In this document: positions 1,996 through 33,530 of the stretch, in pieces | Layout: each line of letters begins with the position of its first letter | Numbering within the stretch: position 1 is the stretch's first letter | Assembly: GCA_040954595.2 (NCBI GenBank) | Contig: CM082596.2 | Span: 7,456,468-7,520,467, forward strand | Length of the DNA stretch: 64,000 nucleotides | Source: Balanoglossus misakiensis | Taxonomy: Eukaryota; Animalia; Hemichordata | Direction: 5' to 3' | Notes under the pieces: generated by a model | What the model was told of the DNA's origin: nothing | What the model saw: only the letters and a program-made list of their open reading frames with translations | The model's database searches: none | Made by a program: the position numbers and the translations under genes

Positions 1996-2759
1996 TACAC
2001 AAAATACAAAAGGCTAATGAGCCCTAAAACAGGAAAGCTATCTCTTAATATCATAAGCGTCAAACCCAAGACATCTGCAACAATGTAACTGGACGATAAT
2101 AAATTAAAAATTCGCATCTGGAACACTATCAGGTAGTAAAACACAGGTACAATGAAAAAAAGAAGAAATTTTAAAAATAGGATATTTTTGCACAGAACCC
2201 AGCATTAGCAACAGGGCAGTCAAGCAAAATGCATCCCCTACACTTAGAGATATTTGAAGTTAACCTATTGTTTTCCTGGCTTGTCTCACTCTGGTTTCAG
2301 GGGTGGGTGGGGGTGGGTAATGACGGCAACAACTTTGCCAGTGGGCCGAATCTACTTCACATTGTTTTTAGATTTACAGAATAACAATTCTGTCCACACA
2401 TAGTGTGTAATGAACGACACTAGGTACGTGTCCTGAAGGGCAGCCCGGGTCATTCACTTCCTTGTGACAGAAAAATAAAAGCAGTTGGATAAATGCACAC
2501 ATTGGACTAAATTATTTCTTACATGAGTATGTGCATCAATATTAATGTTATCGAAGTTTTGAAATAGTCACGACTCAACCCTGTTTTGAAAGCTGAGTAT
2601 ATTATAATCTGAAAGATTCAGAAATTTAAATTTACTTTACGATCTAAGGATAAATGCCCGTACATAGCTAGAGCACAACGTGGAGAAGACAGAGGTCACG
2701 GAGGTACAAAGGGTGAAAGGTCATACGTCACTGGGGTGCGAAGGTGAAAAGGTGGTCTA

Positions 2760-5700
2760 TCACGACTGGTCCGACTCTGCTTGCTGTACCGGCGCCGGTG
2801 ACGGGACTTGGGTCGGGGGCGCCACAGAGGTGTTGATGGGGAACGAGGGGAGGGGGGCGGGGCCCGGAATGGTGGCGAACGACGCCGGGAGGGGCCCCGG
2901 GGGCGGGATTTTGAAGTCGGCCGGAAGCGAGACGGCCGGCATGGGTATCGACGACGGCAGGGAGAGCGGGGGGTTCGGTATCGACCCCGCCCCCATCGCC
3001 GTGGTCGACGGATTCGTCAGCCCCTGCGCAGCCGGAAATTGAATATTCATGTTGGCGAGGCCGGGTATGCTCGGTAGAGTCATCGGGGCTGAAAGATACA
3101 AAAAAAATGTCAGTCAGTGAGAGAAACAAAAGACTAGAAAAAAAAATGAAATTTACTCGTAACTATTTCCACACATTCCCAATAAGTACACCTCAAAAGG
3201 GAACTGACAGACCACAATTCGGTCTTCAGGATCAAACAACACGCCAAATTCTTTCCTCTAATCATACAAAAAAACTTTCACTTTCTTCTGCACATACTGA
3301 TGCACACATGAAAAAATCCTGTTAGACAGTGGCTGAAGTTACACCCCCCCCCCCCAACATAAAAGATCCTTGATCAGTAGCCTTTTAATGGAACAGACCG
3401 ATGATTCAATCATAAAACACAGTCAAACCTGTGTTAGTGGCCACTCTGTTACAGTGCCAGTGCAATTAAAGGCCAGTTTAGGAAAGTCCCTTGACTGGCC
3501 ACTCTTGACAGGTTTGACTGCGTTTTTTTCACCAGTTATCAGCCTCTCGTCATACTCGAATCAAAGAAACTTACTTGGTGGTAACATGGCCGAACCTGCT
3601 GTGGACACCGGCGCATACGTTCCACCCGCAGCCGTTGATGGTATGACGGGGATCGTCGGGGTACCACCGGCAGTCAGGGGACTGGTCACACCCGTGGACA
3701 CATTCACTGGAACGGTTGTTCCTAACGATAACGCCGATACTCCCGTTTCTATCCCAGCCGTCGTCGTATGAGGTGAACCCGATAATGAAACCTGAAACGA
3801 AATCATGGCAGGTTATAAAACTGAAACTATTGCTAGTATTATACTTTAGCTCAGGCCATATGCACATAAAATAACACATACAGTAAAATAGCAATTAATT
3901 AAGGTAAAAAAAAGTTAACTAGGGACATTTCTCTGTTTCCAGAATGTTTATTGAAAATAGGAATCTATGAATCACTAGGATTTAAAACAAAGTTAGCCAG
4001 TCCTATCATTATTTTACACTCAGGTGGATTATTTTGTAGATTTTTTGATCAATCAGCTCCAACAGTGAAATTATAACATTTCTGCTTTTACAATATCTTT
4101 CTTGTGTTTGAAGACTTACCTCTGAAAATCCGTCAGGAGGTGGAGTGACTGACGACAATGGTTGTGGGGGTATAGACGGATCTGCAGGGGGCGATGGCAT
4201 GCCTTCAAACTGCTTTGTTGGTATCCTATGCAAATAACCGTAGCCTATACCACAGCCGAGACTGTGAAGAAAAAAATACAATCACCGCCGTGTCAGTGAA
4301 GTCTAGCTACCGAGCATACAACCGCAAATAGTCAACACTATTACAGCAGGGTAAATCCTGTGGGGAGATTTTTTGTTTTGTTTGAGTGAAAGTAGCTAAA
4401 TTGTCCATCAGTTGCGTTTTCACACGAAAAGTTTGGAGTGGCTTCTTGACTATTACGAAAAGCACAGGCACGAAGTATGAACGTCTCAGGTGCAGAATTT
4501 TTCTCCATATCACTGTTAAAATGATCGACCTACACTCACTTGTGTTTACTGTAAAAACACTTTATTTTCGCGAGCAATAAATTTTCGCGTAATACGCGAG
4601 AGCCAAAATAGCGTGAAAATAAAAAGTCGCGTAAATTTTTTTGAAGATAACGATGCAGTTGTGAAATACGAGAACGCGAAATTAATCCTCGCGAAACAGT
4701 GGCCTCTCATGATATCGCGAAAAATTTCAACTCGCAAAAATAAAGTGTTTTACAGTATATAAACTCACTCACCTTCCTTCACCTCCCCAGTTTGAATTCG
4801 GAGTAAGTGTGACTTCTCTGACGCCGTCCGTTTCCACGTTGTATACATATAATTTTAGAGGTCTACCTTCATGGGATTCTATCAGGGAAAACAAGTCTTC
4901 CGACTGAAAGCGAGAAAGAGACAGGAATTATTATCTGTTGCATCACTGAACATTCTCTCTCTCGTGGACTGATCCTTAAAAGCATGCTATGGACATACAC
5001 AGACAGACACGTGCACACACAGACGGACACACAGATGGACACACATTACTCACCTCATGGAGTACAGAGTCAGCTCCTATGATATAATCTGTATTCGACC
5101 TAAGACCTGCATAATCAGCTGGACCATTGGGTTGTACATCCTGCAATAATGAATAAAAGACAATGAGTACACATACCATTAATAGCCCTGTAGTTACTAT
5201 AGACTAACAAGACACAAACAGTATAATACCATATGGTAAGTGCAAAAGTCCCTTGACACTATTCTTGTGATTGAAGATTTTGACTGTAGGCAATTCGCAA
5301 CAGGTGAAACGTGGAATCACTTTCTATAGAACACTGCAGTAGACTGCAGGCAGCATTTTATTCCGGGGGTAAGGCTTTTGCGAACTCTGCTGTTTACCTT
5401 AAAGGTATACAGTCACCCCCAATTTACATACGCCCATATATGGCTGAATGAAATGGCATATTTGAGCGTTCTAAAGAACATATGGTGGCACTCTTTTTTT
5501 CGCCACCCACTGAAAATCTGTGATTGGTTAGATCTCATTTTGCCATGGTACATTTTGTAACTATAGCTAATTTTCCATAGGTGACCGTATACCTTTAACA
5601 GTCCTAAATCCTAACCACTGGTCCAGTGAATACTCTCTACTGCACTGAACTATACTTGGACTAAGAGAGAGAGATACTCGGGGGAAATTTTGAAGGTAAC

Positions 5701-6951
5701 ATATAATAGAGTCTCGCGCTTTACTCACCAAGACATGCCACACATTTTCATTGGCCCCTTCAAAGGAACAGAATCGAATGCTAACTCCCAGAAGCCCCTG
5801 GCCGCCCCAGGCATTGCTGGGCGTCAACATGACTTCTCTCGTCTTCAGAGACTTGCTGCTGTACACCAACATCCTCACCGGTTTCTCCATGTTACTTTTC
5901 AAGATTTCTTTCAACGTGTCATTGTCTTTGTCCTGAAATTAAGGAAGGTAAACACATGTATTTTATAACTCATACAATCCCTACAACCATCTACTGGTGA
6001 GGTGGCGAAATCGTTTTTTTTTTTTAATGCAGATGGAAATTTTTAATGAAAAGGATTAGGAACAACCAGATGTACTCACCAGTCTCTGGTTGCCAATAGC
6101 AACAATAAAGTCAAAGAAAGCCTCTAAGCCAGCCTTGTGCCCGGGGGAATTCTCCTGTACCTACAGGTGAGAAAAGTAAACCAGTTATACATCATTAGTA
6201 AAACTACAGTTTTAAGCAGCAATAAATGCACATTGCAGCACAGTTATTTTCAATTGGTTAAGAGATAACCTACATTTATAAACAGTGGGCACACAGTCTA
6301 CAGTATGGTTCAAGTTTCTATGCGCATATCGAATGATGACGAAGAATTAGGGTTAGGGATTTTTGCAGAGTCCAATTTTGTTAACATCTGAAATGGACAC
6401 GTTGAGGCGACGTGTCGATGCGGGCACTCGCCTCGTACGGTTGATTGCATTAGCACATCGACAGGTACGGTGGTTTGACCGTTGGCAAGATTCGATTTGT
6501 CCGCATTATGGGCTGTGTTTAAATTTGCCAATGGTGACTGTGCAACACAATAACATTTGTTTGCACGGTTACGACACCGGTGCATACCGATTCGTACGTC
6601 CGCGTCCGATCTCATCGCCGTGAGTGATGGCTCTCTAGTTAGCCCCTCCGCGCCGCTGGGGTCAAGCGATGCGATCAGAGAAGACAATGACGATTGGTTT
6701 TATCAAAACGATCACTGCCGTGAAATCAAACTTAAATCATACCTTCTTTATCATGTTTATCATTAGTCAAAAGCGTTCCACATGTTACACTGGTTCCGAC
6801 TTCCTGACCCGACATGCATGTACAACTATGACCCGGTGCCAGACAAGGAGATGTTTTGACAGTAAAACACGCAGATATTTTCACTTACCCTCAAGACGTG
6901 GTATCCTTCCGAGCCGCCTCCCGGCACCTCTGCACTTGAAGCACCGCCCAT
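2760..6951 (-). CDS. GORASP2: Golgi reassembly-stacking protein (GRASP55/65 family), 8 coding exons, ~417 aa
   Basis: Exons 6889-6951, 6080-6160, 5729-5932, 5054-5140, 4773-4903, 4120-4261, 3575-3791, 2760-3088; all GT-AG and phase-consistent (1254 nt). Translation [21 protein letters not shown]|[27 protein letters not shown]|[12 protein letters not shown]...[27 protein letters not shown]|DVQPNGPA...[20 protein letters not shown] is the recognisable tandem-PDZ GRASP domain with myristoylatable Gly2, followed by a Pro/Ser-rich tail. An invertebrate gene may be co-orthologous to GORASP1 and GORASP2. Confidence 0.96.
3420..3520. mobile_element. MITE family C (CAGTCAAACCTGT TIR, Tc1/mariner/pogo-like ends)
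   Basis: CAGTCAAACCTGT...ACAGGTTTGACTG; longer relative at 37765-37944. Confidence 0.7.
4547..4757. mobile_element. MITE family B (TA-flanked, CTGTAAAA TIR)
   Basis: TA-CTGTAAAAACACTTTATTTT...AAAATAAAGTGTTTTACAG-TA, with internal CGCGAAAA repeats. Confidence 0.8.
5399..5598 (+). mobile_element. MITE family A, copy 2 (GORASP intron 3)
   Basis: Same TIRs, TTAA flanks and internal sequence as 1803-1995. Confidence 0.85.
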
Positions 6952-7927: not shown

Positions 7928-8990
7928 GCCCCCTCTCCCTCCCGCCCCCTCTCCCGCCCCCTCTCAGTATCTACGACTAGTACTCATCTACCTCCCACCT
8001 TTCTAAAGCTCCTTGTATGCACTTTTGCAACTGCGATGTGGCTGTTGACGTCTCGGTGTTACTGGCACGCTTTCTTTCTTCCCTTTGAACTTATTCGACA
8101 ATTTGTTGTCAGTTATGATGAGTTTTTCTGTTAAGATATTATTAATACGATCATTTTGAGTTACGAGCTATTAAGTTATTATAAGAAAATGCATATTGGA
8201 GATGTGATTCCTGAAATCAAAATTGTAAGAAGGGAAAATTTATATTTTGAAATTTTCCTACAAGAGAATGATGATTCCCGAATATGTATACGCCTCAAAA
8301 TACAAGTCTTTATTTTTTTCTGAAATTTTGCTAAAGGTAATATAACTTTAGATTATTCAATGTTTTTTTTTCTCGAAAATACTCCCAATAAACTTTTATA
8401 TAGCAGAGAATTAAAAGATTTGGGGACTGATTTTGCTGAAAAATGTCCCCGAGGCGCGTACTAAATAAACATGTTTTCAATGCATTGCAAGGTACACGTG
8501 TATCATTTGCTTTACACTTTTCAACTGAATGGGACCTTTATCCCAACGATAAAAAAACGTTTATCATATGCACTTAGTTGTACTCAAGTGTGTACGTAAA
8601 TGCCAGTATTGATAACCTACCGAGTTTGCCTCGTGTAAAACGCATCGGAGACGTGGCCTTCATGCCCACAGCAGCCGGGGTAACCCAAAGCATCATGTAC
8701 TCGAAGACCACAATGACTGTGATGATAATCATCAGCAGCAAATCGACCAGTAAGGCCAAGATGTGGACGACGAATTTCAACAACTGCAGGAAGCAGTGCA
8801 GGATTTTTAACACGACATAAAACAGGAACGAGAACGGCGTCAATACGATTTCTGGCGAAAAATAAACAAAAGGGTAAACGGATGAACGGTAATTCACACG
8901 TCAACATGATAACGGCCAGAGTAGGTTATTGTGGAATACTTATAACCACTTGAAGTCATAACAACGATACTAACCTTTCACCTGCGCCAT
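7414..8990 (-). CDS. Putative 3-exon gene, ~165 aa hydrophobic/membrane protein of unknown function
   Basis: Exon 8975-8990 (aacATGG context, MAQVK G|gttagt), exon 8621-8851 (strong polypyrimidine acceptor, donor G|gtaggt), exon 7414-7664 (acceptor caacag|GT). Both introns phase 1 and frame-consistent. AATAAA on the minus strand at 7161-7166; CpG-rich region upstream (~9190-9290). About 50 hydrophobic residues (IVLTPFSFLFYVVLKILHCFLQLLKFVVHILALLVDLLLMIIITVIVVF). Confidence 0.55.
7829..7965. repeat. (CT)n / C-rich microsatellite
   Basis: Directly visible CT dinucleotide run with C-rich ends. Confidence 0.95.
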
Positions 8991-9691: not shown

Positions 9692-10824
9692 TTATGCTTG
9701 GGGCAACAGTGGGCTTGTCTCGTCGCTCTCTTGGTCACGGCCAGCTGGGCTGTTTTCCAGCGCTGCTATCGTGGCTTTGAAATCTTCGGTAAAATCCGAA
9801 ACTGTCTCCTTGATGTCTTCGGCAACTTTCGGGACTTTCTTGAACTCGCCGATGTTGTGCTTGGCGCTGACCACAGCCCCGGGGACCTGCATTGGCGCCA
9901 GACCACAATTCTTCACCGAGTTGATTATTTGCGGGGCCCGCTCGTCCAGTATGTCCTTGGCTCGAGCTATTGCGTCCGGGAGCAATTTCACGATCCCCGT
10001 CGCCGTGTCGCTGATCTTACCCATTGATTCTTCGAGTTTAGCGGCGATGTCTTCGACGTTCTGGTCTTTGTGACCACTTTTTGGACCGGTGGTAAGTACA
10101 AATTTTGGGCCGTTTTCGAGTCGCAATTTCAAATTGGCTGTAGGTGATAAACAATGGAGGGAACTCCTTGTTAGAAATACTCCGGGCTATGTTAGAAAGT
10201 GAAAGCAAGAAAATTCATACCTACTGTCTATGATACAATACACATGAAAATCTGAAAACGACAGAAGTTTAACCAAATGATGATTGATGGTGGCTCTTTA
10301 ATAACGTGACCTTGTGACAGATGACATCTTTTAATTTTGTTAAACAACAACAGCAACAACAACAACGACAACAACGTCAAACAAAGATGCAACCAGAAGG
10401 AGACAGCTTACGGTATTTTGCTTTCAGATCCACCACCGTGTCTTTCAGACTGTCTTCCTTGTCGTGTCCAGCGGCCTCCTTGAAATTGTTCACCGCCTGT
10501 TGGAACGCCTTCCTCGTGTCCACCGCCTCGTTGAACGGAGAGGCGGCGTCATCGAAAATCTTATCTATGTTGTCGATCTTCATCGATTTCATGTTCAGTT
10601 TCTTGACGTCCTTGGCCGCTTGACTTTTCTGCGAAGAGCAGAGAACGAAACCGAATCAGTAGAGACCATCTTAGACTCTCTGTAGCTCCCGGCCTCGGTG
10701 ATAAGCACCAAAGAGGCCTGTATCTGCGTCTTTCTACGAATATTTGTCATTCGTTCAAGTATATATGTCATGATAGAGAGCAGCTCCGTTGGGTACTTAC
10801 ACAACAACAACACTTGTTTCCCAT
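9692..10824 (-). CDS. Lipidated helical protein family, paralogue 1 (~228 aa), unknown function
   Basis: Exons 10801-10824 (MGNKCCCC|gtaagt), 10412-10628, 9692-10137; intron phases 0 and 1; GC-rich codons. Core KKLNMKSMKIDNIDKIFDDAASPFN...YPNLKLRLENGPKFVL...HNIGEFKKVP; C-terminal ETSPLL. Confidence 0.88.
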
Positions 10825-11041
10825 GGTCACCCGGCTTGAAAATTGACGAATGGTAGAAATGCTAGAAAACGTCTCAGGTCTGCAACTATCTCTGAACTGT
10901 GTTAACAGGACTCAGAAAATGAGACTACACAAGTGACAACGCAATGCACACGGTGCATCAAGCAGTACTAAGTAAAAGCTCGGTCACCGGATTGCGGCGT
11001 TCCGTATCCTTATTTCTATTTTTGGCGTTATTTTGAGGTCA

Positions 11042-11051
11042 GGAAATTCCC
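11042..11051 (-). promoter_or_regulatory. NF-kB consensus site (GGGAATTTCC) upstream of paralogue 1
   Basis: Exact GGGRNWYYCC match 218 nt upstream of the ATG at 10824. Confidence 0.45.
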
Positions 11052-11368
11052 AGTAAACGTTGTTTGTCGCTCTGTTGCTCTTTTGTTCATCAAGAAGCCC
11101 ACCACGCAAGCGCGTGGGAGGAAGAACGCGTGAGGCACACGTCACTTTAGCCGGTGAACGAACTTTCTAAGGTTGAACTTTCTCGAACTAACTTGTGCAG
11201 CAAGTCTGTTACTACCCCCGGCAGTAGCCTACCGCGATAGATTTGGGGTGGGGATTGGCGCTCTGTCGCTGGAAATCGTAGCTGCTTCTAAAACGGCATT
11301 CTAGATGTGAGAAGACACAGATTTCTATAGCTAAATGAAAGTCACCCTTGTGGGAGCACCAATTATCA

Positions 11369-11384
11369 GAAACGAAAGTGAAAG
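11369..11384 (+). promoter_or_regulatory. IRF-E/ISRE-like element (GAAACGAAAGTGAAAG) upstream of paralogue 1
   Basis: Triple GAAA including the canonical GAAAGTGAAAG, ~550 nt upstream of the ATG. Confidence 0.4.
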
Positions 11385-12577
11385 CGTTCATTTTTGTTTG
11401 CCGGAAGTGATATGCCAGGGCCGTAACCCGACCACCACTAACTTAAACAGTAAGTTAAATACCCCTCTTGTATATGTATATCCTGCGGTTGTAACGTTGG
11501 CTCATTTAAATACTGGTACAAATCTTGCTATTGGGAAAATGTGTCACGTTGTACATTTATGCATTCGTGGACTTTGGAAATGGACATTGAGTAATTTCTA
11601 TAGTTTGCTTTCGGCTTTGCCTGGGTCGTTTTTCTTATATACATATACATGTACTGGCAAAAGTGTATCGACTGGCCCAGTACACACCTAGTACCAGTAC
11701 CATGTCCTCTCCATACCTTCTATAGTGAGTAAATTTTACCGGAAAGGAGTGTGTGACCTTCGCACCGTCTTGAATAAACTTAACATCCAAATAGTTGTTT
11801 TGGTATATACTATCCTCTTTATTTACCCAAAAATCTTAACTATCGCACTATGTACCATAAAACTATCCAACTAATATGACATATAGTATGTCACAGTACA
11901 AACTAAACATACTTGAAAACTATCCAGCACCTTTGCAATTTGATTTTGTGATTTAGGACATATAGATTTTTTGTGACCACTATCGATGTTCAATACTTTT
12001 TTATAAGATTTAGATTTTTACAGAAACTAAACAGAGAATCCAAGGCATCATTGCAGAGAAAATTTCAGTACATAAAATACAATGCTTGTACAGTCACCAA
12101 GCTTGTAGTTTGTGACACCAAAACAGAACCACTAAACTCCCGCAGTTATTATACTGCCAACTTTTCATTCCACGTTAAGTTACCTGTAATGCCAACCCGC
12201 GTAACCATCATTCTAAATATCTTACTATAACATATCATGAAATTATTAAATGCGAAGTTATGTGGGGGGTTCAACTCACTAATAAAGCGACGAACCTTCC
12301 CCGAAAACGACTCAAAACATGCCAAAATAACGTATCTGACTATCTTATCCAGCCTATATCAACTCACGACCTTGTCAACACGTGAAATACAAATAACTTC
12401 TTCAATTTATTCTGATTTTTAAATTTAAAAAAGATCTATTCTAACTACTTGTATATATAACTACAGTAATGTACTTAAAGTTACTTACATCAGCTCTTGA
12501 AACTACAATCTCAAGCAGAAATCTAACACAACTGCATGCCTATTAATGAAACCAATACATCGTTTATGTGTATTAAC

Positions 12578-12680
12578 GTTAAATCTCAATCTGATTAAAA
12601 TCAGATGTAGGGCACGGCGACTTGGTCCAAGTCCCCGTTCCCGTTCCCTACATCTGATTTTAATCAGATTGGTTAAATTT
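12578..12680. mobile_element. 85-bp foldback mini-element with 26-bp TIRs and a 9-bp TSD (Mutator-like)
   Basis: 12587-12671: CAATCTGATTAAAATCAGATGTAGGG...CCCTACATCTGATTTTAATCAGATTG, flanked by GTTAAATCT / GTTAAATTT. Confidence 0.7.
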
Positions 12681-13076
12681 CAGAGTAAATGCAAAGGACG
12701 GACTCGCCATCAGCTATCCCCCGGTATTATTTGGCGTTGCGAATCGTGATTTCAGTTTGTCAAGCTTCGAACTTGCATACTAGACGTTGTCAATCACCAC
12801 AGCACAGTTCTTCTCCCATCTCGACATGTCACTATTAAGGAGCAGCACCCCCTGACAAGCCATCAACACCTTCTTGCATGAATTAAAGTCACACGTGACT
12901 TTGACAATCTAATGATTGAGATATTACAAATTTTAAGACTACTTTTGTTATTTCATGTCATTTAAAGATAAATATCGTGAGAGTAGAGGTTAAACTTTGC
13001 ACCACAAGAAGTACTAGTATCCAGTACAACAATTTCCTCGATAAAATTATTTCATTTGATTTATTCGGATCTTAAT

Positions 13077-15771
13077 TTATTCTTTGTCTATTAATTGAGT
13101 AGTTTCCGTTGCTTCCGGTTTTTTCTCCTGGCCGTTTTCTGTGACTTCCTGTTGTTTCTCCGGTTCGCTTTCCGATTCGCCGAGTTTCTTGGCGACCTCA
13201 CGCAGCTCTTCTTTGAAACCGCCCAGTTTCTCCATCACGGCAGCCTGTATGGAGGGCGCTTTCTCGCACTTCCTGATGTTGCCGGCGACGCTCTTCTGAG
13301 CCAGGGCCTTGTCTCCCTGGCTCAGCTCGCTGTCGCCGACCCGCGCCTTCAGGTCTTCGGCGTCCGTGACGATTTTGTGGGTGGACTCCACGGCGGCGTT
13401 GAACGAGTCGCCCATCTTCGCACTGGACTCGTTGATGTGCTCGAAGGCACCGATGATCTTTTCGCCGAAAGATTCGCTGGCATCGCCGCTGGGGTCTCCC
13501 ATCGTCAACACGAATTTGCCATCCTGCTCGGCCAGGGTCATATTGGCTGCAAGTATGAAAATTTGTATCATCGCTATCAAAAGTGTTGTCCACTTAGATT
13601 GACATGCAAAAGACAAAAATCACACCGCGATACTCAAACCTGGCCTTTAGTGTATGCCTGTTCAAAGTCCCTCTATTACAGAGGGACTGTAGTCTGTTTT
13701 ATTCGATGTGTACAGATTGCAACTACTTTAGGGAGTAAAAGTCAAATGGAAGTGACAGTGCCACCAGCGTTCGGAGTATGATAAAAAAAAACGTTGACGT
13801 TTGTTTTCTGTCCAATATATTTGATCAGAATTTTGACAAAATAACGCGAAACAAAAAGTGTACGAAACAAAGGTATTTTTCGTTGTCTTGCTTTGTCTTG
13901 TCACATTTTGGTCTTCAGTGAATACTTACGATACGTTGCCCCTTTGACTTTGAGGAAAGTCTCTCCGATGCTGTCCCATTTCTTCTGCCCCGTCATCAAC
14001 TTGAACTGCTCTATGGCCTGTCCGTAGGCTTCGTACGCTTCGATGGTCTCGTTGAAGGGCGCCACCGCGTCGTCGAACGTCTGATCCAGGTCCGAGATGT
14101 TGGTCTTCTCCATCTCCAGCTTCTGAATCTTCACGTCTTTCAGTTCGGAGCTCGAGTCTGTTGTATCTTTGTCGCCTCCCTGGTTGTGACAGAAAATATT
14201 TACGTGCATTTGAGAAAATGTGCGCTACCCACGCCGTCCAGGTCACAGAACGTGTTTGTGTGGACGCGAAAATAAACAGTGTTATAGGGTTTAGAAGCGT
14301 TCGGGAGTAAAGATGGCTGAAATTATGTGGAAGGCAAAATTAATATAGATTGCAATACTGGAATTTCAGTGTGTGAAACATGTACCACAGAATTCCCCCC
14401 CCCCCCCAGGGAATCAAATGGTTCTCCCCTAAACGCACATTGATATATATCAAACCTACTCGCAAAAGAAGAAATTAAACTTTTATATATACGCCCGTAT
14501 TCTCACCAAAAGTCAACCCAGAATATTGTGCGTGGGAAGACTGTACGATGATTACGCAACCCGCACAATGCAATAGTGACCCATCAATTATTTTGTAACA
14601 GGTTGTTCGAATGGGTGGTACAGGTAATGCAGGAATGAAGGACGTAACAGACTTTTTTCTGTGCGGCCCTTTCACGATATAACCAACGAGAACATAATTG
14701 GCGATGAATTAAACCGCGTTGATATAATATCTCTATGACGAGTAATAAGTATGTTTTGGTTTGACCTACGATGAGAATGCGATTTTATAAACAATTTATG
14801 TAAATTACATAAATATGAATTATTTATGTGTGTTATTTTATATAAATAATATGTGCTCGTTTTCATTTTCCCTCGTGAAACAAAATCGATTTCAGTAATT
14901 TTTTCTTGAATTTTGCATTGTGCTGTGTTTGGTTAGGTCATACGTCGCAAGCTCCTGTTTGCTGGCTTTGATGAGGCAACGGTTTGAAATGTAAAATGTG
15001 ATGGGCACGCGTATCGACATATGGTACAATGACGGAGCGCTACAAACGATGAATAAAAGAGAAACGGGATAAAAGCGGTGTTTTCATGAATTCAAAGGAC
15101 GAATTAACCCGATCACTGCAATGAGCAGGTAACAAGTCAGACAGATTCAGCGGATTGAACAGCCTGAGCCTTGCTAAACCGCCAAGGATCTAGACACGAA
15201 ACGACGCTGTTTATTTTCTGTCAGTTGTAAGCGGGGGCCGATTTTAGAAGTGATAATTACTAGCTACTGTGGTCAATATGGCTGGTAATATAGTAAACAT
15301 CATCTTTTGTGCAGAACGCTGCAGGAATATTGGGTAAAAAGCGAAGTGATTATAAAAAGCAGTTTGTGTGTTTTTTAACTGTTGTGTCAAAAAGAGTCCC
15401 TGTTAATGGGGTGTGGCAGCACGTCTGAATTATCGGAACAATAGGAATTCTACGATTAAAACAATAAAAAAATATGACGTGTGGTCTTTAGCGTTTTATA
15501 TGCATCTAAAGCATCATGGACAAGCGGGTGCGTGATATGGTTCAAAAATGTATGTGAACGGAGGAGAAAATCTCCCTTTTTACGACATGACGCAGTCCTT
15601 GTACCGCCAGAAAAAATAACCAACTGGCAGGCGATGGACCCTGACATAAATTTGACTGGGGATTACTGCGCATCACAAAAGGACAGATGCTAAGCTCACA
15701 TGACATAGACGATTTAAACAACTTACAAAGCAATCCAGGAACGGACACAGGACGGAATACAGGCAGCCCAT
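13077..15771 (-). CDS. Lipidated helical protein family, paralogue 2 (~254 aa), unknown function
   Basis: Exons 15727-15771 (MGCLYSVLCPFLDCF|gtaagt), 13930-14179, 13077-13546; phases 0 and 1 as in the paralogues. Core QKLEMEKTNISDLDQTFDDAVAPFN...YPNMTLAEQDGKFVL; C-terminal ETTQLI. Confidence 0.87.
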
Positions 15772-16495
15772 GGTTCACGAATTAAATCCACGAATCGTTG
15801 CGATCGACGTTTTCACGATTTTGTTGTATTTGATCACAGTCGGAGGGGAAAAAAACATGCATAAAACATCTAATTGTCGCAACTACCAGCTGTTGTGGCT
15901 GGTGGCTATTTTTGTCGTGCTAATTTGGTTTTGTCGAATGCTGCCATTAGCCTGATGGATAAGTTAGAGTTTTTGTCGTGTGCGGGTGACGTCATCGTGA
16001 CCAGGAAGCGGCGGTTAAAAGAGCAATATTAACCCGTTTGTGCAGGTTCCCCCAAGGGGTCATTGGAGGTCACTCCTTCAGACAGATAAATCAATTTCAT
16101 ATTCCTTTGTTTTTATCTTCATGGCGTGGCAGATTTTAGCGAAATAAATTGTTGGTGTCATCTGTTTGGTTGTTTGTTTGCTTTCCTCCTATGCATATCG
16201 GTTGCGTTGCACCCCCTGTCATCCGTCCCGCCCATACGCGCACTAAATATGTTGACTTTCGCAAGATCAAACATGCACGCGTCGTGATGAATTTCTCGGT
16301 TTATTTTTGACAAAGTCAACACATTAACCAATTTTTACAGTATTTACCAACAGATTGTATAAGTCTATGTAATATACGGTTCATACGTGAGTGTTTTAAG
16401 CACCCAGACAGGCTGAGGCAAAGAGCATCATATTTTTAGAAACGCCATATGCATCGTTTTGAAAACCGTCAAAAGTGGAGCTGCAACACTCTATA

Positions 16496-16692
16496 TTAAA
16501 GGTATACGGTCACCTATGGAAAATTAGCTCTAGTTACCATGGCAAATTGAGATCTAGCCAATCACAGATTTTCAGTGGGTTGCACACGCGAAAAAAAGAG
16601 CGCCACCATATGTTCTTTAGAGCGCTCAAATACTAGTACGCCATTTCAGCCATTTCAGCGTACGTAAATTGGAGGTGACCGTTTACCTTTAA
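16496..16692 (-). mobile_element. MITE family A, copy 3 (inverted)
   Basis: TTAA-AGGTATACGGTCACC...GGTGACCGTTTACCT-TTAA; internal sequence is the reverse complement of copy 1. Confidence 0.85.
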
Positions 16693-16942
16693 CGCCCATA
16701 TCTACTCTAGACTCAATGCCGCCATTACTTTATTCCCCCCTACACACACAAGTAGTCGTTGCCTTTAAAAAGTCACTATGAAATTATCAAATTCAAATTA
16801 TTGCTTATTTGAATTTCAGATTATTTTATGTAATATTATCCAAGAATGCCAGTCCGCCCTTCTTGCTATCACCATTTCCATGATTTTATTCCCAAAGTGA
16901 CGTCATTTATTATTGTTTACTTCACATACAATTCAGATAGTG

Positions 16943-17074
16943 AACACCTATTGCCTGGCCATGAGGGCCATAGCAGCCGTTTATTACACCCGAGGGGCTG
17001 TGAGTTACCAGAATCACATACGAGGGGGTAAAAACGGCTGCTATGGCCCGAATATAGGCCAGGCCATAGGTGTT
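16943..17074. repeat. Imperfect long palindrome (hairpin-type interspersed repeat)
   Basis: AACACCTATTGCCTGGCC..GGGCCATAGCAGCCGTTT pairs with AAACGGCTGCTATGGCCC..GGCCAGGCCATAGGTGTT. Confidence 0.65.
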
Positions 17075-17599
17075 TTATAATAAACCTCATATCTGTGAAC
17101 TCACATTGGTCACGTGACCGGTTTATATTTGTTCTGCTATTTCCCTAGGGATTCATAGTCGATTCTATTTTCTTATCGCGTGACGGATTCTGGCGAATCA
17201 CGACACAGTATTAGCATGAGGTATATTATAATAAATTCTATTCACTCTGATCGTGATACATACTGAAGAACAAGGCCCAGACTCCCATATATTCTAAAAA
17301 AAAAGAGTGTGTACATTTACTTAATTATTATGAAAGTTAGTCGCGTTGACACATCGCAATTAACTCCAAATGGAGTCCTATGTGTACTATTTTTGGTGAT
17401 TCAAAAAAATTAATTGTCTGAAATAAAATGAAAATACCCTGTCGCTTGAGTGAATTTTCAAACAAACACTATTTAGGCTAATTTAAATTAAATTAAAGCT
17501 TAGATTAAGGGTTTGGACCCATGTTTCGATTTCAGAAATCTGAGGGACTTTGGTTTAACCAGTATAATAATAATCTTTCGTGTGATTGTCCAATGCTTC

Positions 17600-19355
17600 C
17601 TATTCAATCAACTTTGTTTTTTCAGTCGCCTCGGTCGTTTTTGCTTGAGTGGTATCCTGTGCTGCGGGTTCGGCGCTGGGGGCGGGGTCTCCTTCTTCCA
17701 GCTGGGTCAGGCTCGGCGCCTGCTGTTGCGGGTTGACTCCGATCAGATCGCGAGCCTCTCGGACCTGCTCGGCGAAGTCGTGGATGAGGTCGAACATCTT
17801 CAGCTCGATGTCCGGCACCTGGCGGAACTGGCTGATGTTGCGGAGAACCACCCGCGTGGCCTTGTAGATCTCCATGATTTCCAGGTCCTCCTGCTTGATG
17901 GCCTGTCTCAGTCCGGCCACCTCGCCGATGATGTTCTCCGCGTCTTTGGCGGCGTCCCCAGCCAGATCCACCACCTCCGTGGCCAGGTCCCCGATGGCCG
18001 CGAACTGCTCGGTCAGCCTGACGGCCTTCTCTTGGGTCTGAGCCGTGGGCACCTTGGCCGCCCCCGGAATCAGGGTAAAACTCAGACCCTTGCCCACTTG
18101 CAGTTGGAGATTAGCTGTAAAAGACACGAGACATTAATTCCATATACGAGTCAAGCTTTGCATGACACTAGAATAGATGCAGATTTTTTTAATGGAACCT
18201 TTAGGCCATATAACATGTGCCAAGTGGTGTTTGTACTGTGTCACATAAAACTGCCCCACCCACGTTAACTATCTAGTCACGCGAGATCTCCAGGGTCTCG
18301 TGGACTTCGGAAAGTGGTCTATTTAGAATATCGCAGCCGGGTTCAGTTTTAGATAATGGGGACGGTGTCTCATCCCTCAATTGCCCCCGCGACCTGAAAA
18401 TAAGCTGTATTTTTTTTTTTAAATTTTACTTACGATATATTCTTTTCAAGTTAATAAGCGTCGTCTTCAGAGACGTGCCGCTCCTGGACCCGGCTGTGGT
18501 TCTGAAAGCCTTCACGCTGCTCTGAAAATTGACGACGGCATCCACGGTCTTGTTGAACGGATCGGCCGCGGTCTCGAAGATCGTGTCCACACTTTCTATG
18601 TTCGTCCGCTCGATTTCCAACTTCTGAATGACAGCCTCGTCATCGTCGCCGCCGCCACACAGCGAAGCCTGTGCGAAGAAAACTCAGAAATTTCAGACAA
18701 TAAAATGGCGTCAGGCTGAATTGGGCAGCAGAATTCCTTGCTTCAAGCAATTCCGCGATAACTTGATCTTTTACTGACATCGGATTCCTTGAAATGATTA
18801 TAAAGGCCCCTGTTTGTTGACGAGTGCATAAACAACAAACATTTTGCACACGGAACTGTTTATCGGGAAACCAAAGATCAACCGGGCATAACAGGTTGCC
18901 CCTTTAATTAATTCGGCCAATGGAATCGCTGTCAAAATTCAAACAATTACTCTAGTCGGGGCTTTGGACCGTATTTGTCTTTATGGCAATTCATTGCATG
19001 ACATAAACGCCATCAGCTGTACATACCTTCTGAGGTATTTCCTTCGCGTTAGATGTTCGCAGACAATCCGAATTCTCACAAACAGTGCACGACAAAACAA
19101 ACAGTCCGCGACAAAAATAAAAATTAAGCCAATTTTTTTTCAAAATAGGTTGCCGACAAGCTCTGAAGGTCGCCGACATTTCAGGCGAAGTGTTTCACAA
19201 GCCCGACCGCCGGTTTCTTTCGAAGGAACCACGGAAATCCGTCAAACCAACCCATGTCACAAAATGAGACCCTCATCACGTCTAATGTAACATTTTTTTT
19301 ATAAAAAATGGGGGGAGGGGGAGGGAATACTCACGCAACACCCTATACACCACAT
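17600..19355 (-). CDS. Lipidated helical protein family, paralogue 3 (~256 aa), unknown function
   Basis: Exons 19335-19355 (MWCIGCC|gtgagt), 18434-18668, 17600-18114; phases 0 and 1. Core QKLEIERTNIESVDTIFETAADPFN...YPNLQLQVGKGLSFTL...RNISQFRQVP; C-terminal EKTKLI. Exon 1 is the least certain part. Confidence 0.84.
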
Positions 19356-20985
19356 CGTTTCTCAACGGACACGTAACAACGTATGGTGACTCTCCGAATA
19401 TTCAACTGAATCACAGCTTTCTGTCAGAGAGAACAACATCTGTTGTTCGTCACTGTCGCCGAAAACATGATATTCTACACATGGCGCACAAACAGTGAGA
19501 GAGGTGTTTGCATCTCATTTGCATATTTCACTTAAATAGAGGGAGAACTGAAAATGTTCACCAGAAAGTTTGTTTTTTTTAATTCCGCTAGCTATAACTT
19601 TTTTCACTATTTTTTTCATTATTCTTTGATCCCCGAAGAAGAATTAAATACCCAGTTAGCTTTGTCTGAGAAAATGAACCATTGCTGCATGCAGTCTGTC
19701 GTTTCCGCTTTACAAACCATCGTTGAAGGGGGAAATCTTTCGTTCATCGTAAATTGGCACAATTCAAGATTAATGTTTTGTTTTGTTTCGTTTTGTTTTC
19801 TTTTCTTTTCTTTATATATGTACTTTTACGCTGGCCCGCTAACAAGAATGTGTTACAATACAAATGACCTAATAAATTTAAATGAAAAGGAACTTTAGTG
19901 TTCGAAATTTGTTTCTTATTCGAATCCCTGAAACGTAACATGATGACATGTCAAGTACATTTAGTTTGTTAGCACACCAATATGCGTTCAGTCAGCATTG
20001 TTATTTTCGAAATTTGAATTTAAGTCCGCACTAGAACTCTTTGTCGTCAATAACAAGCAATGGTTGCAGACAAGCTGAATACTGAGATTTCTTGCATGGA
20101 TGGAAAATGCCGTCAGTACAGTTAGAGCCGGTAAAAGCTTTAAACAAATCGGTTTTTCGCATGTCCTTTTAGGCCATATGCTTAAATATTAACCTTGCAA
20201 GTACACATTGAATGTTGGAACAAAACAAAAGCAACACATGTGACCAAGGATAATCGCCTTAGAAACAACAATGGTCAGGTTTTGTCTAAAAATAAGTCGA
20301 GAATTTCGAAATGTGCGCATCACTATGCGCATATCATCATGCATGATCAATATCTGAATATCCTAGTTTCTCAACTAAATGAACAGTGTCATTTGTTTAA
20401 CTCTGACTGATAACGCGAAGTAAAATTCGCGCTTTATTATTGTTCCTCGTCACCAAAATATATAATAACAACCCTTTAATTAAAATTTAATAAATGTGAA
20501 CTCTTAAAACTTGGATATAGGCCTATGTACATTTGTATCACAATATAACGGAGCAGAATTGTCCTCTAAAATCTGCATATCTACAAAGGACGTGTCGGGG
20601 GTCAAATTATTATATCTCATCGATTACTTCATATATATGTTTCAGCACCGTGACGGCTAGGGGCCAGACGATAGCCGTGCTCCGCTTCGTATTGCAGGCA
20701 CGGCGGCCTCCGCTGCTACACCCCATGACGATCAATGGACGGTGCGCGCCAGGTAATAAATTTTAGCATTGGTACCAATATGGAAGTATTGGTGCGTTTG
20801 GATTCTATGAATAGCCAGTGACGTTTGTGAAATCTTTCTTCTGTTTTACTGATTCTATGAAGATTTTACACTTTTCATAAAATGAACAGAACAGCATTTC
20901 AACGGAATTCACGCATAACCCGTTTCCTATTAAGGTTGTTTGTTCGGGCATAGTTTCAAAATCTGTTCATGCTCCCAACTCCGAC

Positions 20986-21180
20986 TTACAGGTATACGGT
21001 CACCTCCCGTCTACATACAGTACGCCCATGCATACATTTTGCAGAAATGGCATATTTGAGTGTTCTAAAGAACATATGGCGGCGCTCTTTTTTTCGCATG
21101 TGCCACCCACAGAAAATCTGTGATTGGCTAGTTCTCAATTTGCCGTGGTAACTAAAGCTATATTTGCATAGGTGACCGTA
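20986..21180 (+). mobile_element. MITE family A, copy 4 (damaged ends)
   Basis: AGGTATACGGTCACC...GGTGACCGTA with the family internal sequence; right end truncated. Confidence 0.8.
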
Positions 21181-21984: not shown

Positions 21985-24406
21985 CTAGGCCGCGGACTTC
22001 AGCGCTTCGATCGTGTTCTTGACCTCCTGCGTTGTGTCCTCTATTGTCTGCTTGAAGGCGTCGCCGATCACCGGGACTTTCTTGAACTCGCCGACGTTGT
22101 GCATGGCGTTCTTCAGCGCCCTGGGGATCTTCAGCGGGCTCAGTCCCGCGTTCTTCACCATGTCTTCGATCTCCGCCGCCTTCTGGATCAGGGCCTCCGC
22201 CGACTCCACGGCGGTCGTCACCAGCTCGATGATCTCCGACAGCAGCTCGCTGATCTTGACGAACGCGTCGACGATTTTGACGGCCAAATCGGCCACGCCT
22301 TCCCCGCCGCTGCCGTCACCTGCCGTCAACACAAACTTAGGACCTTCCCTGATCTCCAGTGTGAGGTTAGCTACGGAAATGTAAAAAAAGAGAAAGGGAG
22401 ATAACATGGTATTAAAACACCATAAGCTGCAACTTTTGGGAAACTATCATGAAATTCATTTTCACGCTGTACTAATATTAATCAATAAGGATGTATGCAC
22501 TGAAGTATATACAGGTATTATAAACCCCAAGTGTGAGTGTATATGCAAGTTTTAACCAGATAAATAATAAAGCTTTGCCGCGAAGAAATATGGCCGCCAC
22601 CGTGGGAAAAATGCAAAATACAATGAAAACGTTGCAATTCACTGTCTTTTTCAGAACTTCAACGTTGGCCAAATCCAAGGCAAGGAGCTATTTGCCCGTG
22701 CCAATAAATATCATTACGTCCAAAAAAATCTACGTCCACGGTACCAGAAATGAAAGTACGCCCTCAACGGCTTACAGGGACAAGAGACGGGGGCAGTTCT
22801 GGAATGAAATACTCACGAAATTTCATCTTCAGCCCTATAACGACAACTTTTAGAGTATCCTCTTTCGTGTAGCCCGCCATCACTTTGAATGCCTCCACGG
22901 CGGCGTCAAAGGCATCCTTCGCGTCGACGGCTTTGTTGAATGGAGCCGCAGCATCGCCGAACATCTGGTCAAGATCTTCGACGCCCGTTTTCTTGATGTC
23001 TAGCTGCTCCACGCCACCCTTGCTTTCTGGTTTCTGATAAAAATACGACAAAACAACATTCGGTAAACACATTTTGGTTATTTCAGTAAAATGAAACTTT
23101 CCCTGAAGCGCAGAAGTCGACATTTTTCTCAGTATCGCTTAATGCAAAAACACAATCTGCTTAATTGGCACTCTGTATAGTGAAACATAAAATGCCGTCT
23201 AAGAAAAAGTATTGAAGGTATGGCCTTGTGCGGTCGCCCATGCAACTATATAGTAAGAAACCTGTTTTCACTCACTCACTCACTCACTCACTCATTCATT
23301 CACTCACTCACTCACTCACTCATTCACTCACTCCCATAACGTGTTTCGCATCGAAAAGACAGCATTTAGTAACGATACCTAAACTACACTATAGGTACTA
23401 GTATACTACACGGGTTCCCCATACTTAGTAATAGCTCAGCCGAAAATGCCGTAATTATGATAAAACACTTCAATCAAGGATGATGCAGAAGTGATGTCTT
23501 GCAATATCAAGATAACTGGTAACCCCTGGCAATTTCCAATACACAAACGAGATGCGTTTTGATTTTACTATACATGCAGACGCGCGGCAATCAATTCTAA
23601 TTCTTGACCATTTTCTTTTTTTATCTCGGATATTTTATGTCACGGGGGCGGTGCAGTACATGGTTGCTTTGGACATTTTCTGTTGTCCATTCGACCAATC
23701 GATGCGCATGGGTCGTTTGTTTGCATCGCCATGTCAATAGTTGACCGTAGCAACCAGAGTGTTGTTAGCAACCGTAATGATGTTAGTAACTCCCCTATGT
23801 TCTTTCGGTTCGTGGTAAATAAAGACAAACATTTTATCTTCACGCCTTTGTTTTTAATTAGCAGAAATAATACTCATCTAATCATTTATATTGTTCCTTC
23901 TACAGAGATCTAACCAAAAGCGCATTACAGGGAATCGAAAGTAAATTATATATAAATAATTCAAATGTATATAAATAATAAAAACCAATACCATTATGAA
24001 AAAAGTAGACATTTTTTCTTCATTAGCGACACATATCTGGTGCATTGCTTCATTAAAAACAGATCTATTCAATATTTTTTAATTAAGCAAAGTGGCACGT
24101 CACTTTCCCTACAGTAGAAAAAAAGGAAAGTTTGAGCCAAAGTTGAGAAAATATCGAAATTCAAGGAGGCGGCCTCGCGTGATATTTTGGCGGAGGAGTT
24201 AGAAAGACTGGCTCCCTGCGCAGATTTACAAAGAACCGGAGTAAATAATTGAAACATATCGCAACAACACACCGCTTCTGCTGAACGGTAAGCGTGATAA
24301 GAAAGATTAGCAGGAAGTGTAAAATCGTGAGGAAAAATTTAACACCTCGCAATTGACTCACCCTCCCAGAATCAGTTTTTGTCGACGATGAAGATCCACA
24401 ACCCAT
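21985..24406 (-). CDS. Lipidated helical protein family, paralogue 4 (~215 aa), unknown function
   Basis: Exons 24362-24406 (MGCGSSSSTKTDSGR|gtgagt), 22817-23033, 21985-22370; phases 0 and 1. Core EQLDIKKTGVEDLDQMFGDAAAPFN...FPNLTLEIREGPKFVL...HNVGEFKKVP; closest to paralogue 1; lacks the C-terminal tail. Confidence 0.88.
23268..23333. repeat. (CACT)n microsatellite
   Basis: Directly visible tetranucleotide run. Confidence 0.95.
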
Positions 24407-26960: not shown

Positions 26961-28805
26961 CTAGTTTTGTAGATCTCTCTCGTCCTCGTTCTCGGCATCG
27001 CTGCATTCGGCGGCGCCACCGACGAATCCAACCATCTCAGATCGTTCGTGTCGGTGCACGATCGGCCTCCTCGGAGACCCTGTCTTCTTCTCCCTTTCCG
27101 AGTTCGATTTTTCATCGTTCTTTTTCGCCTCGTCGCTCTGACTCCCGCCCGCCGCCTTGCCAACGGTCGTGTTTCTGTAGTCAAACATTTCCTCGTACGA
27201 ATCTTCGAATGCATCCGCGGTGAAATCGTGCACACTGATCAGAGAAGCCCCGTGGCTGATTTTCTCCGCTGCGAACGAGGTCACAGGGTGTGTGACGCCC
27301 GCTCCCGTTTCCAGGGTTACTGCAGCGTCTTCCTAAAGAAGAGAATGGACAGGTGAAGCGTCTCAAATAACCGAAAAGACAAAACCTGAACTTTTCCTTT
27401 AAAATCCGCCCCAGGTCACAGTAGTGACATAAATTAATCAAACTATCCTAGTTCCCTTAAGTCTGTTTTTTGTGCTTTGGGTCTAAAAAATCCTCTGCAA
27501 TCCACTCCATAGCAAAAAAAATGATTAATGAATTTTACTGTATTAAACCTACTAGACACATAAACACAAAATACACGCCAATCACATGATGAAAAATCTT
27601 GACCTGTGCTAGCGCTCTTACTCATCCAAATCCCTTTTTGCGCGAAATACAGGACGTCTGCCTTCCATTTTATAACGAAATATTCTCCTAATCATATACA
27701 GTGGTTTACCCTCGACTGTCTATCTCCCAATGGTGGAAAAATGTGCAATTCACGTTGGGTCAGAATGCTGAATGACAATGTTTCTACGAGTCTAATTTTA
27801 TCTCAAAATAAAAATCGCCTCTGCGAAAGTTCCCAGGGATTCTTGCCGCCAGATTCGTAGAACTTTTACGATGTGCTCTCGCTTCAAGGGAAAACGAATT
27901 CTGCATTGTCAGTCGATTTTTAGTCCATTGATCAGTAACACCTGGTAACATAACCCTCCTGAACTGTGTGGTGCGGGTGACGTTTTGCATAATTTTACTC
28001 TCTTAGTGTGAGCTGTGACCTCACAAAGTGAAAGTGACTGCAGAATGCCTTAAGTTTTTTTTTCGAAATCTCCTTCGCGGTCTCAAACATAGCCACCGTC
28101 TTTACAGTTGAGAATGTTTACGGTGAGCAAGGTTAACGTTGCCATGGAAACTCAAATTGAAGATGCTTTGACTTTAGTAAAAACCAAAGGCAGTGTGGGT
28201 TTCGACGATCATTATAAATTTAGGCGAACTGAATACATACAGCAGCTCACAACAGCGAGTCGACGGCATGCTAAGCGGGCGGCGATATAGAATATCGAAT
28301 ATTAAAATATTTCTTCATCTCATATGAATGCAGAAATCTGATTGGATAGGTGGGTGGATGGGTCGATATTATGAATTGTGAAGTTTTGAGTACAATATTG
28401 ATTTTAATAAGTTGTCGAGTCCTGAAGCTTTTATTTATGAGTTAGCACGGATTTGTGACAAGTTGACCCAATTTACTTCAACTGATGGTATGTCTAATAC
28501 CTTTTCTTTAAGTAAAATTCATGTTTCAAATTTGCGTTTAAAATGCCTACATTTTTGGTAGGAAAAAACACTGTTATTGCATCAGTAAATGTAACACGAC
28601 GAATATTGACTATCAATGGTCCTTTTTATAGAGAAAGGGCGGCTCAGCCAAAAATTCAGCAATTTTGCATTTGTGTGTTAGTAATGTGGTTTTAGGCTTG
28701 TAAGAACCACGGTAGATGTATTTCACTAAATAGAGCAAATTAATTAAATGCAATTCATACCTCGATTCCTACTTTAGTTTTAGCTGCCGAAGTCGCGCAT
28801 CCCAT
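26961..28805 (-). CDS. Putative 2-exon small acidic, probably disordered protein with N-terminal MGC lipidation motif (~138 aa)
   Basis: Exon 28761-28805 (MGCATSAAKTKVGIE|gtatga) joins in phase 0 to exon 26961-27332 (acceptor ttctcttctttag; EDAAVTLETGAG...DAFEDSYEEMFDY...DERDLQN*). Both exons are GC-rich islands in AT-rich DNA. An extra middle exon cannot be excluded. Confidence 0.68.
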
Positions 28806-33190: not shown

Positions 33191-33530
33191 CTACTTAGGG
33201 ATGCCTGTAAAATTTAATGCCTTGTCTGGGGATGCCATTTACATTAGAAGTCCTGCTCAGGGATGCCAGTAAATTGAATGTCCAACCTAGGGATGTCCAG
33301 CCTAGGGATGATTTCTACGTTGGATGACCGTCCCAGGGGTGCCGTGTGTATTGAATGTTCAGCCTAGGGATGCCATTAAAATGAATGTCCAGCCTAGGGA
33401 TGCCATTAAAATAAATGTCCAGCCTAGGGATGCCATTAACTTGAATGTCCAGCCTAGGGATGCCATTATTCTGAATATCCAGGCTAGAGATGCTATATAT
33501 ACAAAAATCGAGCCTTGGGATGCCGTTTAC
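33191..33530. repeat. ~30-bp minisatellite (TGAATGTCCAGCCTAGGGATGCCATTAAA-type), ~11 units
   Basis: Recurring CCTAGGGATGCC at ~30-nt period; central units nearly identical, flanks degenerate. Confidence 0.9.

Follow-up and report, generated by a model that had tools for sequence, protein, structure and literature searches.

How could a lipid-anchored protein without a transmembrane segment be sent to one membrane of the cell while its close relative goes to another? This question is raised by four tandem minus-strand genes (g1 to g4) of the acorn worm Balanoglossus misakiensis, which occupy 9.7-24.4 kb of the 64,000-nucleotide stretch that we analysed (assembly GCA_040954595.2, contig CM082596.2, positions 7,456,468 to 7,520,467 of the forward strand; hereafter the window). 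A preliminary description had noticed an acidic dileucine motif at the end of three of the four products. We consider it reasonably probable that this C-terminal ExxxL[LI] motif of g1-g3 acts as a sorting signal for adaptor protein (AP) complexes, by which these helical, non-enzymatic proteins with a predicted lipid anchor would reach endosomes, lysosomes or phagosomes on their cytosolic side, and that the tail-less g4 would go to the plasma membrane by default. The motif itself is probably functional, and its sequence pattern points to a real, conserved sorting signal of a known kind, carried by an uncharacterised and widespread domain family.

Translation of the gene models placed the three motifs exactly where the preliminary description had put them:

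9704..9721, minus strand: g1, acidic dileucine ETSPLL, followed by 3 residues and the stop
13089..13106, minus strand: g2, acidic dileucine ETTQLI, followed by 3 residues and the stop
17606..17623, minus strand: g3, acidic dileucine EKTKLI, followed by 1 residue and the stop

The fourth paralogue had been described as ending at its helical core, and this was borne out: g4 has no tail, and [DE]xxxL[LI] is found nowhere in the protein. The motifs of g1-g3 fit this consensus as quoted in the available text of PMC10235903. When the tails were shuffled, a motif came to lie no more than 5 residues from the end with P = 0.0073 (g1), 0.0017 (g2) and 0.0048 (g3), giving a product of 6e-8 with tail composition and 7e-7 with whole-protein composition for paralogues that are not independent. 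Because the paralogues share ancestry, we preferred the family itself as the stronger control. A C-terminal motif is present in only 1 of 58 non-hemichordate family matches, at the core end of a signal-peptide-bearing, bacterial-type protein.

Family members were collected by a profile (HMMER) library search over 1.84 billion representatives, which gave 67 matches at E <= 0.001; word-indexed protein searches gave almost nothing beyond P0005. The closest relatives of the cluster proteins come from Ptychodera flava, Glandiceps talaboti and Saccoglossus kowalevskii. The probable false positives P0048 and P0050, two-domain proteins and long-insert members were excluded from the alignment (A4), and trees paired g1 with P. 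flava P0005, g2 with P0008 and g3 with P0009 (support 100/99, core-only columns included). Conservation of the motif in orthologues had been named beforehand as the check on its function, and it was found: over the motif region (residues -3 to +6) the P. flava orthologues are identical at 8/9 positions for g1, 7/9 for g2 and 7/9 for g3, as against 22%, 18% and 13% in the linkers, with P0008 carrying ETTKLL and P0009 EMTKLL. Identity over the core is 67%, 65% and 49%, respectively. A short, degenerate motif in related paralogues might simply be neutral sequence inherited from a common ancestor. We regard this as very improbable, since in each of the three orthologue pairs the residues around the motif are more conserved than the folded core, and the linker has changed in both length and sequence.

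Across the hemichordate rows, all nine that make up the g1, g2/g3 and Glandiceps clades carry the motif, and none of the five g4-like rows does. One of the nine is internal and comes from a 606-residue Glandiceps model, which we cut in two as a probable gene fusion. This model, P0006, holds two near-identical copies of the domain with a dileucine motif after each; the annotation probably joined two tandem genes into one, the alternative being a true two-domain protein. The E at -4, S/T at -2 and L[LI] are fixed in all nine rows and the other positions vary. The tail end could be conserved for another ligand, such as a phospho-Thr-dependent or extreme-C-terminus binder, with the AP match incidental: S/T at -2 is unneeded by the AP consensus, and in g2 and g3 conservation runs upstream (A-T before E). 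However, the residues after LL vary freely (PQA, ANA, DKE, DQE, HDE, E, PK), the positions that never vary are E and L[LI], and in other animals the motif lies in the middle of an N-terminal leader (see below), so that a free C-terminus is unnecessary; we hold this explanation to be improbable. The tails had also been called unalignable outside the motif, which is true only in part, as the ends of g2 and g3 align at 7/9 residues over EATE.T.LI.

In the AlphaFold2 model of the g1 orthologue, the predicted local distance difference test score (pLDDT) is 62-69 in the tail compared with above 90 in the core, so the motif likely sits in a cytosolic, exposed, disordered tail. RNF11, an acylated protein, resembles g1-g3 as a small non-transmembrane protein sorted by acidic dileucine motifs. 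It differs in its signals, two GGA-type DxxLL motifs as defined in the available text of PMC13581114, which need an Asp three residues before LL. At this position g1-g3 have T, T and K, and a GGA-type reading of their motif was ruled out.

We then considered the other end of the proteins. In gene models based on splice sites, each of the four genes has an open frame, spread over three exons with intron phases 0 and 1. The products have 228 (g1), 254 (g2), 256 (g3) and 215 (g4) residues and are 28-44% identical in pairs, the closest to g4 being g1. Their exons are as follows:

9692..10137, minus strand: g1 exon 3, with the beta-hairpin, long helices, tail and stop; 69% identity to P. flava P0005
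10412..10628, minus strand: g1 exon 2, with the first long helix, the invariant Asp and a conserved Phe
10801..10824, minus strand: g1 exon 1, start MGNKCCCC with Gly2 and four Cys, acylation predicted; GTAAGT donor
13077..13546, minus strand: g2 exon 3
13930..14179, minus strand: g2 exon 2
15727..15771, minus strand: g2 exon 1, start MGCLYS, three Cys, acylation predicted; the start of orthologue P0008 is MGCLQS
17600..18114, minus strand: g3 exon 3
18434..18668, minus strand: g3 exon 2
19335..19355, minus strand: g3 exon 1 (best model), start MWCIGCC without Gly2, three Cys, only palmitoylation predicted; GTGAGT donor
21985..22370, minus strand: g4 exon 3, stopping at the helical core, without tail or motif
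22817..23033, minus strand: g4 exon 2
24362..24406, minus strand: g4 exon 1, start MGCGSS with Gly2 and one Cys, resembling protist members

The preliminary description had taken the proteins to be lipid-anchored. Its support lies in the N-termini, which carry a Cys within the first 15 residues in all four paralogues, and in the lack of any transmembrane segment in g1-g4 (no hydrophobic 19-mer above 1.43); acylation itself is predicted, and the myristoylation glycine is present in g1, g2 and g4 and missing from g3. In the best g3 model, which has an in-frame stop three codons upstream of its start, codon 2 is TGG (Trp), one base away from the Gly codon of all other window paralogues, and the P. 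flava orthologue of g3 has Gly2. The Trp may reflect a real one-base loss of myristoylation with the palmitoylation Cys kept, an allele, or an error. An alternative g3 start at 20726 (minus strand) was set aside, having weak donors only. It belongs to an orphan MGCSS open frame (20560-20726, minus strand) that lies between g4 and g3 without a strong splice donor and could be an unused or alternative g3 first exon. The g4-like protein P0007, encoded by the intronless record L014, has a start identical to that of g4. Because P0005, P0008, P0009 and the motif-less, g4-like P0013 have neighbouring accessions in P. flava and contigs of equal length, the cluster appears to be conserved there.

What would these signals sort? 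Along its entire length, the core of about 190 residues shows homology to the segment that follows the C2 domain in a sea-cucumber phospholipase C (PLC)-like protein 2 (P0042). This homology, which runs through one PLC-like protein, was seen at E 6.1e-6 in the library search and at an HH probability of 95.4% over 181 columns; with P0042 left out of the profile, the match reached E 6.1e-17 over profile positions 4-189. Two P. flava members are named 'inactive phospholipase C-like protein' by NCBI. No Pfam match to the PH, EF-hand, X/Y or C2 domains was found in the exons of g1-g4 (215-256 residues as proteins) or in the orthologue, and only 1 of 53 alignment members has a C2 domain. By sequence, g1-g4 consist of the tail domain that follows C2 in PLC-like (PRIP) proteins, here standing alone, and, because the PH, EF, X/Y and C2 domains are missing, are not themselves PLCs. 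They differ from PLCL1/PLCL2 (PRIP), which presumably have the same tail domain in vertebrates, in that a predicted acylation leader and a sorting tag replace those domains. The core matched no Pfam or NCBIfam family, with sub-threshold coiled-coil matches only, and no description of the domain or family was found in the accessible text passages that a literature search covered. This family identity, which the preliminary description did not identify, is a larger result than the motif.

The domain is widely distributed. Stand-alone forms with MG..C leaders occur in Vitrella, Mastigamoeba and many further records, tandem copies in Nematostella and Montipora, and fusions to PX, OmpA and collagen-trimer domains elsewhere in the family. 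Among the fusion members, P0012 from Saccoglossus has a collagen-trimer-like segment inserted behind its acylation leader, P0061, P0064 and P0091 have PX-like domains at the N-terminus, P0065 has an OmpA domain, and P0036 has a long C-terminal extension that by eye resembles an acyltransferase. Bacterial members carry signal-peptide-like leaders, and several are named Myxococcota; the bacterial and hemichordate profiles match at an HH probability of 99.1%. The 13 bacterial loci (L001-L013) come from metagenome-assembled genomes, four of them titled Myxococcota. Klebsiella or Enterobacterales titles on similar bacterial loci look like mislabelled bins. No conserved operon was seen at the bacterial loci (42/60 crudely called open reading frames, 12 loci scanned), where sulfatases are neighbours at 3 loci and a TerB/oxidoreductase pair at 2, and these neighbourhoods offered no hint of what the domain does.

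We next turned to the predicted structure. The AlphaFold2 model of the g1 orthologue (mean pLDDT 91.5; predicted template modelling score, pTM, 0.82) shows three long helical stretches, a short helix, a beta-hairpin and the loose tail. Fold searches of the PDB and BFVD gave no match at E <= 0.001. In VIA, where the bar for helical bundles is about 13 and scores below it are no proof of a new fold, the best Z was 9.9, for a designed gp41 mimic (root-mean-square deviation, rmsd, 4.6; 163 aligned), followed by MIC60 at 9.1 and CdvA at 8.9. The ESM Atlas gave no feature match (best TM 0.54), and sequence searches of the PDB gave generic helical matches only. ClyA/Hbl-type alpha pore-forming proteins scored at background (E ~0.3; Z 7.3, rmsd 4.1, 169 aligned, rank 30), and no strongly hydrophobic, membrane-inserting segment was found in g1-g4. 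A natural two-domain member was modelled as two separate domains (pTM 0.45), which is neutral on packing. No recognisable catalytic set was found among the conserved positions. That the domain is a non-enzymatic, protein-binding scaffold is a tentative suggestion, which we rate below even chances.

A related proposal is that g1-g3 are connectors, in which an AP complex is recruited through the motif and the helical domain thereby drags a bound partner (a receptor, channel or SNARE) into the vesicle, the partner being what is sorted. HIV Nef shows the same layout of acylated N-terminus, folded core and exposed dileucine, and the divergence of the paralogue cores to 28-44% identity would fit different partners. 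Yet no partner or binding surface was identified, nor any sequence or fold likeness to Nef or to any adaptor, and we think this proposal quite unlikely.

Other animals provided a further view of the motif. In non-hemichordate animals it tends to occupy the N-terminal leader, usually after the Cys cluster: ERTSLL in Owenia, ERDPLL in Montipora, and EQAPLL and EDDQLI in further records. The Montipora leader has 12 cluster mates with ETERLL, E and LL being fixed between the two forms. The motif is found in 4 of 7 animal leaders compared with 0.35 expected from shuffles, and in 0 of 19 other MG..C leaders (P 1e-4, indicative; the seven leaders were picked after the sequences had been seen, and two were assigned to animals by likeness only). 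The occurrence of this signal at either end of a single domain speaks for selection on sorting rather than for a local structural role. The preliminary description had called the C-terminal motif retained, a view that the family weakens, the motif being missing from 57 of 58 outgroup matches. Because the outgroups are without a C-terminal motif and g4 starts with MGCG as do many protist members, gain in hemichordates is the simpler reading of the sequences. The hemichordate backbone was unresolved in the trees: the fewest changes are 2, and a single motif-bearing clade is neither shown nor rejected (approximately unbiased test, p 0.31).

The layout of the annelid and coral members with an N-terminal motif matches that of LAMTOR1/p18 and Ego1, acylated scaffolds of the lysosome and vacuole that, like our family by prediction, have N-terminal Gly/Cys acylation on a helical scaffold. 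LAMTOR1 has an N-proximal dileucine. They differ from the family in giving no sequence or fold match, and the hemichordate motif is at the other end.

An acyl anchor joined to a dileucine signal without a transmembrane helix had been called an uncommon combination; unusual it is, with precedents in PI4KIIalpha and in Ego1 and Yck3 as palmitoylated AP-3 cargo. PI4KIIalpha, like g1-g3, has no transmembrane helix and combines a lipid anchor with a dileucine. According to the available texts, it is anchored by palmitate and needs the dileucine to bind AP-3, and without the signal it behaves as a plasma-membrane protein (PMC3237628, PMC3327330), diffusing there as we propose for g4. Unlike g1-g3, which have no known activity, it is an enzyme; it shares no homology with them and has an N-proximal motif (L60-61), whereas theirs is far C-terminal. 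The palmitoylated yeast proteins Ego1 and Yck3 are described as AP-3 cargo found at the plasma membrane without AP-3 (PMC8859911, available text); Yck3 has a tyrosine signal, according to a reference title in the same source.

Taken together, these observations suggest a mechanism. The four paralogues encode the stand-alone post-C2 tail domain without a transmembrane segment. Myristoylation of Gly2 and palmitoylation of Cys (palmitate only in g3) would attach the proteins to the Golgi or plasma membrane, where AP-3 or AP-1 would bind, through its sigma subunit, the motif on the free acidic tail. The adaptor would pack g1-g3 into carriers bound for late endosomes and lysosomes, and g4 would stay at the plasma membrane by default. 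More loosely, the three-helix rod with its beta-hairpin might serve as a protein-binding scaffold, probably lying flat on the membrane with both ends near it. Duplication and gain of the tag would then enable acorn worms to put a single module onto different membranes. The Pro before LL in g1 makes its motif the most like known AP-3 signals, and the PX-fused family members hint at endosomes.

Several points weigh against this mechanism. About 200 residues separate the motif from the anchor, so that its reach to the membrane depends on the orientation of the rod; as the three long helices are antiparallel, the N- and C-termini probably lie at the two extremities of the rod, as suggested by the secondary structure of the model and not by its coordinates, which would require the rod to lie flat; and the linker of g1 is short. 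The best model of g3 is without Gly2, the poly-Cys hemichordate members P0010 and P0012 are without the motif, and the remaining three of the seven animal leaders have near-matches only (EKTSLV, VKTPLL, EETTPI). The only near-invariant residues of the domain are an Asp (43/43 rows) and an Asn (43/45), which do not indicate its job. Finally, [DE]xxxL[LI] does not distinguish AP-1, AP-2 and AP-3.

This last point opens the way to a different destination. As several AP complexes read the consensus, the motif could be an AP-2 endocytosis signal or an AP-1 basolateral or recycling signal, with g1-g3 shuttling from plasma membrane to early endosomes and back, or restricted to a single epithelial surface; g2 and g3 are in fact without the Pro before LL found in g1 and one Glandiceps copy. 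Against this, g1 ETSPLL and the N-terminal EQAPLL and ERDPLL resemble the AP-3 signal of LIMP-2, DERAPLI (PMC3327330, available text), and the lipid-anchored cases described in the sources above are AP-3 cargo. We judge the AP-2 or AP-1 alternative unlikely, though worth keeping in mind, and favour delivery to late endosomes and lysosomes.

The remainder of the window holds further genes. Right downstream of the cluster lies a GRASP55/65 gene (~2700-6951, minus strand; PF04495, E 1e-24 at 5567-5938) with a Met-Gly start and Pro-rich 3' exons, and between it and g1 a possible two-exon gene (8975-8990 and 8574-8851, minus strand) would encode a very hydrophobic product of 97 residues with a sub-threshold Pfam match only. 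Upstream of g4, a two-exon gene (28761-28805 and 26961-27332, minus strand) has an acylation-type MGCA start and an acidic, probably disordered body; this gene (26961-28805) gave no Pfam match and no tblastn likeness to g1-g4. Several exons of a coiled-coil protein gene lie at 33500-38600 (minus strand), with no Pfam family above the cut-off. Recurring translations point to a short interspersed element that has inverted ends; its copies lie, for example, at ~1830-2010, 5330-5610, 16500-16690, 21000-21180, 45300-45600, 51500-51800 and 55530-55720.

On the widest and most speculative view, which we think unlikely as a whole, the PLC-like tail domain would be an ancient module that acts on membranes: Myxococcota-type bacteria would export it, microbial eukaryotes would acylate it or fuse it to PX, and animals would attach it to PLC-L. 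An endolysosomal address would have been added twice in animals to its stand-alone form, N-terminally in cnidarians and lophotrochozoans and C-terminally in acorn worms, and its action as a Nef-like connector or membrane-shaping scaffold would reveal the role of the PRIP tail.

The logic of a lipid anchor with an acidic dileucine is already known from a few proteins, and the interest of this locus lies in the cargo. The signal at opposite ends of the domain in different phyla would be a clear example of a sorting address that changed place during evolution. As single-domain proteins that differ naturally by the tag, g1-g3 and g4 make the function of the domain, and hence of the PRIP tail, directly testable.

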